Origin: Podarcis liolepis | Taxonomy: Eukaryota | NCBI GenBank assembly: GCA_965112155.1 | Contig: OZ218105.1 | DNA length: 64,000 nucleotides | Direction: 5' to 3' (one strand) | Translations under genes and position numbers: made by a program | In this document: positions 42,081 to 44,060 of the stretch, piece by piece | Position numbering within the stretch: the stretch's first letter is position 1 | How the letters are laid out: each line of letters starts with the position of its first letter | The notes under the pieces: generated by a model | What the model was told of the DNA's origin: nothing | The model's input: only the letters and a program-made list of their open reading frames with translations | Database searches by the model: none

Positions 42081-42991
42081 GTAAGGCCCTGGCTTTTGTC
42101 AGTGACTGTACTGTTAAGGTAATTTAAAAATTGATTAATTCTAAGTACTTTTACCACCAGACTGCCAAAAGAGGACCCGAATAGCACCTTTGGTCTGCAG
42201 TTTGTTTTACATCAAAAACACTTAATACTGTAAGATTAAACCAAGTTGAGGAACAGTTACCCAGAATATCTGTTATCTAATACCAGCCTTGGACACATTG
42301 AAATAAATGGATCTACTTTGAGTATAACTTTGTTGTCACCCTCCTTCTGCAAAAATACTTGTTCGTCATTTCATAATATCAAAGATGATAATAACTTTCT
42401 GTGAGTTAAATTCTCCAATTTAAATACCAAGGGGGGAAAAGAGCCTCTCCAAGAGTTGCAGTGCCCTACCCTGCCCATTCAGCAATATAAGTGTGTGCTT
42501 GGAAGCTACCAGTTACAATTTACAGAGACACTGGCGCAGGAATTACTAAGGAGATTTTTGCTGGAAAGGTTTAAGAATCAGCATTCTCATTTTTATGTTG
42601 GGGGGGGGATAGTTTCTGAAAACAGTTAAACAATCTCCATATATCCCACCTGCAATAAACATTCATTTCATACACAATGTAGCTTATATAGTCAAACATT
42701 AAGCAGATATGTAACAATAATTACACTCTGTTAAGTGTCTTGTACTATATGCGGGTTGTCCATGAGTGATTTGTGGGTATTCTTGATTGCATCTTTTCAG
42801 GAACAAATTATTTCCACCCTCAGCTAGTCCCCTAGCAAATCTGTGTGCTCCTCCTTTTGAGTTCTGCAGAAGGAGTCAATACGTGGGCAAGTCTCTTGTT
42901 CCTGCAATATAGTATCTATTCCTGTTGGGAAGGATGAACTTGCCCCACAATGAGTTGTGAGAAGGTCAGGAATATCTGTCATGGACATGAT

Positions 42992-43150
42992 CATAGGAAG
43001 CTGCCTTGTGCAAACAGTTGGTCTTTTTGCTCAGTCTTGTTGACAGTGACTGGTAGCAGCACTTCAAGTTTTAATGCAGAAGCCTTTTCCACCTCTATCT
43101 AGAGATAACATGAATTGAACCTTTGCATTCAAAGCATGTACTGTATTAAC
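42992..43150 (-). mobile_element. Degraded tRNA-derived squamate SINE (Squam3-like)
   Basis: Reverse complement resembles the copy at 61784-61973; cataggaagctgcctt end. Confidence 0.55.
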
Positions 43151-43473
43151 ATGCTCTAATAGATCCTATTTTGTGTTGTATCAAAATAAAGGTTCCAAGA
43201 TAAATAGTATGTTCTTATACCTTCATTCACACACAACAGTGATTTCCATTGATGAAGAAACAAGCTGCCTTTTAGACTTTACAGTAACAGACATTTATCT
43301 ACCATTTCTTTCTCGCTTGCCCATAGCCCATACATGTACTTCTGGTGCATGGGAATAGCACTGAAAAGTGATCCAACTTTCAACTAACTCTTATGTTGTT
43401 TAAGCTAAAAATACTGCTGGATAAAAAAATTCCTTCCAGTAGCACCTTAAAGACCAACTAAGTTAGTTCTTGG

Positions 43474-43510
43474 TATGAGCTTTCGTGTGCATGCACACTT
43501 CTTCAGATAC
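43474..43510 (-). ncRNA. Minimal type I hammerhead ribozyme motif (Penelope-type), antisense copy
   Basis: Reverse complement reads gtat-CTGAAGA-a-gtgtgcatgcacac-GAAA-gc-TC-atac with a 4-bp stem I. Confidence 0.65.
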
Positions 43511-43519
43511 TTCTTCAGA

Positions 43520-43556
43520 TATCTGAAGAAGTGTGCATGCACACGAAAGCTCATAC
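43520..43556 (+). ncRNA. Minimal type I hammerhead ribozyme motif (Penelope-type), sense to ATP9B pre-mRNA
   Basis: tat-CTGAAGA-a-gtgtgcatgcacac-GAAA-gc-TC-ata: core boxes, stem II, palindromic AGCT stem III, 3-bp stem I. Confidence 0.65.
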
Positions 43557-43702
43557 CAAGAACTGACTTAGTTGGTCTTTAAGGTGCTACTGGAAGGAAT
43601 TTTTTTATTTTGACTATGGCAGACCAACACGGTTACCTATCTGTAACCAATACTGCTGGAGTTCTGTTAAGTGGTAAACCCCCAATATGTTGCTTTTTGT
43701 AG

Positions 43703-43847
43703 GTCTGCTTGAAATACTATGAGCATGAATTTGTGGAATTAGCTTGTCAGTGTCCAGCTGTAGTATGCTGCCGATGTTCACCCACCCAAAAGGCCCACAT
43801 AGTAAAATTGTTGCAACACCACACAGGAAAACGTACTTGTGCAATAG
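43703..43847 (+). CDS. ATP9B: ATP9B exon 11 ([49 protein letters not shown])
   Basis: tgtag| acceptor, G|gtaagc donor; 145 nt; CCRxSPxQK motif. Confidence 0.95.
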
Positions 43848-43985: not shown

Positions 43986-44060
43986 AAGGGAAAGGAGAAT
44001 GTTAGCCGCTTTGAGACTCCTTCTGGTAGTGATAAAGCGGGATATCAAATCCAAACTCTC
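43986..44060 (+). mobile_element. 3' end of SINE/LINE with L2-like tail (second copy)
   Basis: Matches 4043-4115. Confidence 0.65.

Follow-up and report, generated by a model that had tools for sequence, protein, structure and literature searches.

A young head-to-head Penelope-like insertion with two hammerhead motifs in an ATP9B intron of Podarcis liolepis

The insertion and its host intron

The analysed DNA (hereafter the window) is a stretch of 64,000 nt of Podarcis liolepis contig OZ218105.1, in which 19 exons of ATP9B were found, the first of them near residue 362 of a 1139-aa homologue. One intron carries an insertion of 227 bp (43422-43648, as delimited by the flanking TSD). The features of the locus are given below; q coordinates are counted along the forward arm with q1 = 43520 of the window.

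42081..43702, + strand: host ATP9B intron, GT..AG, 1,622 nt including the insertion (exon mapping)
43410..43421, + strand: left copy of the TSD, AATACTGCTGGA, 12 bp (repeat search; exact match to the right copy)
43422..43510, - strand: short inverted arm, pLTR q0 to ~q88, ending at the upstream one of the two 3' end points of the family
43472..43510, - strand: minimal type I hammerhead motif with a 4-bp stem I, antisense to ATP9B; predicted cut between 43477 and 43476
43497..43520, + strand: central junction with a 12-nt templated tandem duplication (seen in the sequence)
43520..43555, + strand: minimal type I hammerhead motif in the ATP9B pre-mRNA (motif features as described in PMC4209133)
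43520..43608, + strand: base-paired portion of the long forward arm, with 98% identity to each of the two pLTRs in the full-length element L189
43609..43648, + strand: unpaired Penelope "tail", 40 nt (the tail as defined in PMC8557442 and PMC11167929)
43649..43660, + strand: right copy of the TSD, AATACTGCTGGA, 12 bp; the match of contigs from runs X1, X4 and X10 breaks off exactly at 43649
43703..43847, + strand: ATP9B exon, residues ~817-866 of the 1139-aa homologue, 11th exon in the window

The inverted arms (43421-43509 and 43520-43608, 89 nt each) are 99% complementary. Their sole mismatch is T at 43464 versus G at 43565, which makes a U-G pair in the + strand RNA; the A>G change at 43565 is private to the long arm, being shared neither by the left arm nor by the other top-scoring copies. 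The centre of the insertion (43509-43532) is a perfect 24-nt palindrome. The length of 227 bp, the perfect 12-bp TSD, the ~89-bp arms with one G-U difference and the 12-bp central duplication, all listed in a preliminary description of this DNA, were confirmed in the sequence. Templated centres similar to 43497-43520 occur among the 50 family centres listed, and we infer that the 12-nt duplication is the product of two cDNA ends being joined. The tail contains an in-frame ATG (43616), the likely start of the element ORF, and its positions 43618-43625 are an 8-nt complement of the acceptor G plus the first exon bases (43702-43709). The hairpin fold of the + strand has an energy of -180 kcal/mol (z = -25.6 versus 200 shuffles).

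The exon next to the insertion (43703-43847) is 100% identical over the 48 aa queried to proteins named ATP9B or ATPase IIB. It was previously called exon 11; it is indeed the 11th of the 19 exons of the window, yet it begins near residue 817 of 1139, so it is not exon 11 of the gene and the number is a window count. The insertion ends 54 nt ahead of the acceptor, close to the ~55 nt given earlier. The last 54 nt of the intron are host sequence, and neither the nearest branch-point candidate (43667-70) nor the pyrimidine tract is part of the insertion. The hairpin, proposed earlier to lie next to the branch region, stops 94 nt ahead of the acceptor. According to RNA folding, the accessibility of the 3' splice site is similar in the filled and empty alleles. 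Masking of the acceptor by the insert tail was rejected because no difference between the two alleles is predicted. The insertion allele is probably near-neutral for ATP9B splicing, being effect-free by prediction. In the next ATP9B intron, positions 43986-44059 are the 3' end of another very high-copy repeat, other copies of which run on into TCT-type simple repeats.

Hammerhead motifs

Core boxes of minimal type I hammerheads are found on both strands, back to back as proposed, and match the published descriptors; the two cores, one per strand, are 16 nt apart. On the + strand CUGAAGA (43523-29) is followed by an extra A, stem II (43531-43544), GAAA (43545-48), the palindromic AGCU and UC (43551-52), C17 being 43552. 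The G10.1-C11.1 pair, the palindromic 15.2-16.2 positions, the extra nucleotide after A9 and the CUGANGA/GAAA/UH boxes are all present. Helix II is formed by 5 bp with a CAUG loop, the 14-mer being self-complementary, and stem I has 3 contiguous bp in the + strand (pre-mRNA) copy, compared with 4 bp for the family and for the - strand arm. In minimal PLE hammerheads helix I has 4-5 bp and helix II 7-8 bp (PMC4209133). The covariance-model search of the insertion against Rfam gave no hammerhead at E<=10 and only miRNA matches below the gathering score. The hammerhead call thus rests on the motif features and the published descriptors.

Folded alone, the + strand copy is predicted to prefer the central palindrome over the hammerhead. 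In the pre-mRNA its core is predicted to be paired to the left arm with a probability of at least 0.95, in line with the earlier suggestion that the antisense arm masks it. We favour the view that this predicted masking is a by-product of the insertion. A monomeric minimal hammerhead showed no cleavage and dimers cleaved at a low level (PMC4209133), and the anole Poseidon hammerhead showed none without the element protein, cleavage being dispensable for insertion and RNA reads ending at the cut being absent (PMC11167929). As the published minimal hammerheads showed no cleavage as monomers or without protein, there may be little for the hairpin to silence.

As a genomic footprint of cleavage, an insensitive test, 2 of 30 arms have their first base exactly at the cut site. 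Genome-wide the number of arms with this start (q34) is 73 at most, the rough background from the 30-arm sample being of similar size, and many of the 73 can be put down to a 1-nt deletion, to self-palindromic joins or to ATAC microhomology. Cleaved RNA is no noticeable template for insertion. In RNA reads of a related species on a family copy (again an insensitive test) there is neither a pile-up of read begins or ends nor a step in the sense depth at the cut site.

The element family

The 35-nt hammerhead core has 11,579 exact copies in the 1.57-Gb genome, and back-to-back centres (13+13 nt with at most 30 nt between) number at least 1,733; the reversed-pattern controls gave 0 in both cases. 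The ATP9B insertion is therefore not unique. Longer copies extend upstream into a GIY-YIG frame, and a protein search resulted in at least 10 genomic matches in 926-aa open frames. The frame of one such copy (L189) is flanked on both sides by the pLTR, q1-123 of the insert arm being 98% identical on each side. It contains the RVT_1 domain (457-602, E 1.4e-11) plus, at its C-terminus, a GIY-YIG domain (824-876, E 2.1e-5), as well as the DKG (ADKGG) and CCHH (CQQC...H...H) motifs, read by eye against PMC8557442. Ahead of the endonuclease lies a CX4CxxC linker (CNKPRCQLC). According to PMC8557442, a CX2-5CxxC linker is present in Neptune/Nematis and absent in Penelope/Poseidon. Judged by this linker, the family is an EN+ Penelope-like element of the Neptune/Nematis type. 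The Penelope-like origin supposed earlier is thus upheld by the RT and GIY-YIG domains and by pLTRs 98% identical to the arm, whereas the assignment to the Penelope/Poseidon clade is contradicted by the linker. With at least 10 open 926-aa frames the family looks currently active.

The first 20 loci chosen by the ORF start contained no full-length family element, and a PDB sequence search with the element protein gave weak RT matches only (E>=0.04). A non-LTR retrozyme was rejected as a candidate: it needs head-to-tail tandem units, and the insertion is a single head-to-head one.

Several copies with the 926-aa frame (L189-L193 among the loci) are found in tandem or inverted pairs. At L041:2855-3925 a differing RT/GIY-YIG-like frame follows the ORF start of the family, possibly representing a second Penelope-like family. 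Two 95%-identical 3-kb loci on C5 (L026 and L027), ~150 kb apart, share one inverted insertion beside a GC-rich open frame; they may represent either two haplotypes or a segmental duplication that postdates the insertion.

Age and polymorphism

The site is empty in contigs of X1 (organism A), X4 (organism B) and X10 (organism C), among four runs, X3 giving no information on this point, and the filled allele was seen in the assembly only. The 1.8-kb contigs of these three runs align from exactly 43649 and then hold more than 1.4 kb without the insert tail; the unaligned part would be the left flank of the empty site. By word share, organism A appears to be the species of the window. With three differences from the window in the aligned piece, X1 is another haplotype. 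The empty site in three other runs agrees with the earlier impression of a recent and perhaps polymorphic insertion. A polymorphic ATP9B allele offers a natural filled-versus-empty test of the effect of the hairpin on splicing.

RNA editing of the family

Two bulk RNA runs of organism B, a related species, were mapped on a family copy (L008:1400-1629); a search for RNA runs with the filled ATP9B allele found none. The DNA run of this organism is without the ATP9B insertion, and the DNA control is another individual. A>G changes were observed at 21 and 29 places in the RNA runs and T>C changes at 18 and 18, as compared with 4 and 6 in the DNA contigs; the changes are strand-split as expected for A-to-I editing. 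In the two runs q51 is changed in 34% and 47%, q62 in 27% and 39%, and q29 (A15.1 of the core) in 12% and 20%, against at most 0.3% in DNA contigs at the same sites, among the 12 sites listed. All 12 listed sites are within the paired-arm region. The suggestion that the hairpin could be an ADAR substrate is thereby borne out at the level of the family, by the A-to-I pattern in RNA of a related species. The read depth of organism B shows an antisense excess, which appears to come largely from one expressed locus.

Lizard Penelope has been named as massively edited, with over 40 K sites (PMC5625713). The head-to-head stubs give a concrete likely reason for this published heavy editing. The open-access literature yielded no paper that connects head-to-head PLE stubs with twin priming or with editing of the hammerhead.

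Geometry of the insertions

The first 100 exact core matches on C1 were taken as 71 loci, which cover the first 5.4 Mb of one chromosome, and 85 insertions were kept after dropping arms of <90% identity and insertions touching a locus edge. Head-to-head insertions make up 46 of the 85 and the other 39 were classed otherwise; the choice by exact core favours palindromes with two intact cores. A long (tailed) arm is paired with a short one in 44 of the 46 head-to-head insertions. Both cores are intact in 23 of the 46, and 12 of these 23 are shorter than 300 nt. A TSD of at least 8 nt was found in 65 of the 85 insertions (12-13 nt in 36 of the 65), of which a few may be due to chance given the search slack of 12 nt.

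The 3' ends of 101 exact-core arms fall into two groups, q123-129 (44 arms) and q81-104 (53 arms), with 4 elsewhere. Their 5' ends are in q-5..q4 in 56 cases, with the mode at q-2 (20 arms). The same end points recur as loose ends in reads and contigs of organism B. Many arms ending at q-2 carry T, where the templated base is A, just before q-2, which is compatible with a non-templated or mis-incorporated base at the RNA 5' end. The TATATAG of the pLTR has its first base 30 nt ahead of the A of TCAGT at q-3. TATA-to-start spacing of this order is established. We infer that the transcript starts ~3 nt upstream of the hammerhead, at the pile-up of 5' ends. The same spot also reads as a 3' splice site (TTTCAG|TG), which may count against a transcript start; in Penelope of Drosophila, helix I is where an intron ends (PMC4209133).

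The two arms of an insertion are concordant at their 5' ends. An arm at the putative start has a far-upstream partner in 2 of 45 pairs versus 11.7 expected (permutation p=4e-5), which suggests that both arms are copied from a single RNA molecule. The sequence differences between arms, 1.15% within insertions and 1.31% between them, cannot show a single RNA template. Of the 45 long/short pairs, 26 have a short arm that extends further 5' and 11 a long arm that does so, the remaining 8 being ties (p=0.02); in 18 of the 45 the start of the long arm is downstream of q4 and the short arm extends beyond it.

At ten of the 20 loci chosen by the ORF start (L042, L044, L045, L048, L049, L050, L053, L056, L057 and L058) the tail runs ~36-60 nt into the ORF, and this stretch is followed by a new forward copy starting at q1-2. 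The pattern points to an additional RT start site and to template jumps from the RNA 5' end.

Origin of the palindrome

The ATP9B insertion is best described as a very young non-coding pLTR stub of an active Penelope-like retrotransposon, the palindrome of which probably arose during insertion, by head-to-head joining of two cDNAs that had been primed on the two opposite strands of the target. We give this reading as a whole a probability of about 0.75. The element transcript would start ~3 nt 5' of the hammerhead, 30 nt after the TATA box of the pLTR. The endonuclease would nick both strands ~12 nt apart, and RT would start at two internal sites bracketing the tail, ~q128 and ~q90. With anole Poseidon in vitro both target strands are cut and extended, and two internal RT starts bracket the tail (PMC11167929). 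As the end statistics suggest, both cDNAs would then copy the same pLTR copy and run off the RNA 5' end, and their 3' ends would be joined with short templated duplications. Since the hammerhead lies within the first ~40 nt of the RNA, the join places two hammerheads back to back. In the ATP9B pre-mRNA the arms are predicted to form a duplex of ~89 bp burying the + strand core, and such RNA may be A-to-I edited, as was shown for the family in a related species and not at the ATP9B locus.

A much broader scenario, which we consider unlikely, would combine this mechanism with selection. A dimeric RT using both nicked strands, two sites of one RNA and run-off at the capped end would mass-produce self-silencing hammerhead hairpins of ~200 nt, which would be the main ADAR substrate of lizard transcriptomes; sense intronic copies with an inverted arm would be preferentially kept, pairing and A15.1 editing disarming the ribozyme.

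Selection by itself, i.e. preferential survival of those sense-strand intronic copies in which the inverted arm masks a harmful ribozyme, is improbable in our view. It would agree with the predicted complete pairing of the + strand core, with editing of A15.1 in family RNA and with the under-representation of retrozymes in Xenopus introns (10.64898/2026.07.22.740005). However, the inverted arm is a routine product of insertion with a fixed long/short geometry (46 of the 85 sampled), and 39 of the 85 were classed as not head-to-head. A monomeric minimal hammerhead showed no cleavage (PMC4209133), nor did the anole hammerhead without protein (PMC11167929), the + strand copy is one stem I pair short, and the sense-read depth has no step at the cut site. 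The ATP9B allele is also too young to show selection by itself. A selected "tolerance" is probably unnecessary to explain the inverted arm, and the by-product model is favoured.

Equally improbable is a fold-back, in which one cDNA end snaps back and copies itself into the inverted arm. The perfect 24-nt palindrome at the centre of the ATP9B copy speaks for such an event, which would also give two arms of one length class. Under fold-back the tailed arm should extend furthest 5', whereas the short arm does so in 26 pairs versus 11, with 8 ties (p=0.02). Nor is the tail, which is outside the short arm, copyable from the short-arm cDNA, so that in the 18 of 45 pairs with a further-reaching short arm and a long arm starting downstream of q4 the long arm cannot stem from fold-back on the short cDNA. 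Fold-back is thus disfavoured for most copies; in the ATP9B copy, with arms ending at q0 and q1, it is possible.

That the palindrome is an assembly artefact (a chimera of a fold-back read) is very improbable, even though the filled junction was in none of the contig pieces listed from four runs. The TSD is exact over 12 bp, and the empty-site contigs break at its first base. The unequal arm ends are typical of the family, the arms differ at one position, and there are at least 1,733 similar centres; strand-changing joints of the family are also present in RNA reads and DNA contigs of organism B. Least probable of all is a MITE or a miRNA gene: the short palindrome with a TSD and the Rfam miRNA matches would fit, but every match is below the gathering score and reflects the hairpin only, and a MITE origin is refuted by the asymmetric ends and by the sequence being the pLTR of an RT element.

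Comparison with known systems

The ATP9B insertion is well explained as a member of a known element type, and there is nothing unusual about the locus as such. Inverted 5'-truncated copies and a one-sided tail of 30-40 bp are typical of EN+ PLEs (Craig et al. 2021, PMC8557442). The family resembles the Neptune/Nematis-type elements described there in its single ORF with RT and GIY-YIG, the DKG and CCHH motifs, the pLTRs and the hammerhead in the pLTR, and the insertion resembles them as an inverted 5'-truncated copy with a 40-nt one-ended tail; unlike them, the ATP9B copy is a pLTR stub only.

In Poseidon of Anolis carolinensis (PAc; Frangieh et al. 2024, PMC11167929) RT starts 111-118 nt after stem II, and the long end of this family is at 116-117 nt. 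Uncleaved RNA is the template of PAc, and the end points of our family agree with this in a different clade. The PAc main text describes no head-to-head stubs, pile-up at the transcript 5' end or concordance of two arms.

With the minimal PLE hammerheads (Cervera and de la Pena 2014, PMC4209133) the insertion shares the core boxes, the extra nucleotide before stem II and the short helix I. That work reports motifs in turtle and snakes, as well as dual motifs on opposite strands 100-700 bp apart; the ATP9B cores, in contrast, are 16 nt apart. The helices differ as well from those described there, helix II having 5 bp and a palindromic loop and the + strand helix I having 3 bp. Among the hyper-edited repeats of Porath et al. 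2017 (PMC5625713), palindromic Harbinger repeats of a frog are edited without a neighbouring copy. In the part consulted, the lizard editing signal is reported there without a tie to self-palindromic insertions, an explanation which the present counts offer.

The family has thousands of near-identical copies, the end points of which read out in vivo the poorly understood integration of Penelope elements: two RT start sites, a sharp 5' stop and concordant arms. In twin priming of L1, priming on both target strands results in an inverted 5' part flanked by a TSD, and each of the two cDNAs is copied from a different part of the RNA, without overlap. In the present family, in contrast, the cDNAs overlap by ~90 nt, which produces a perfect hairpin.
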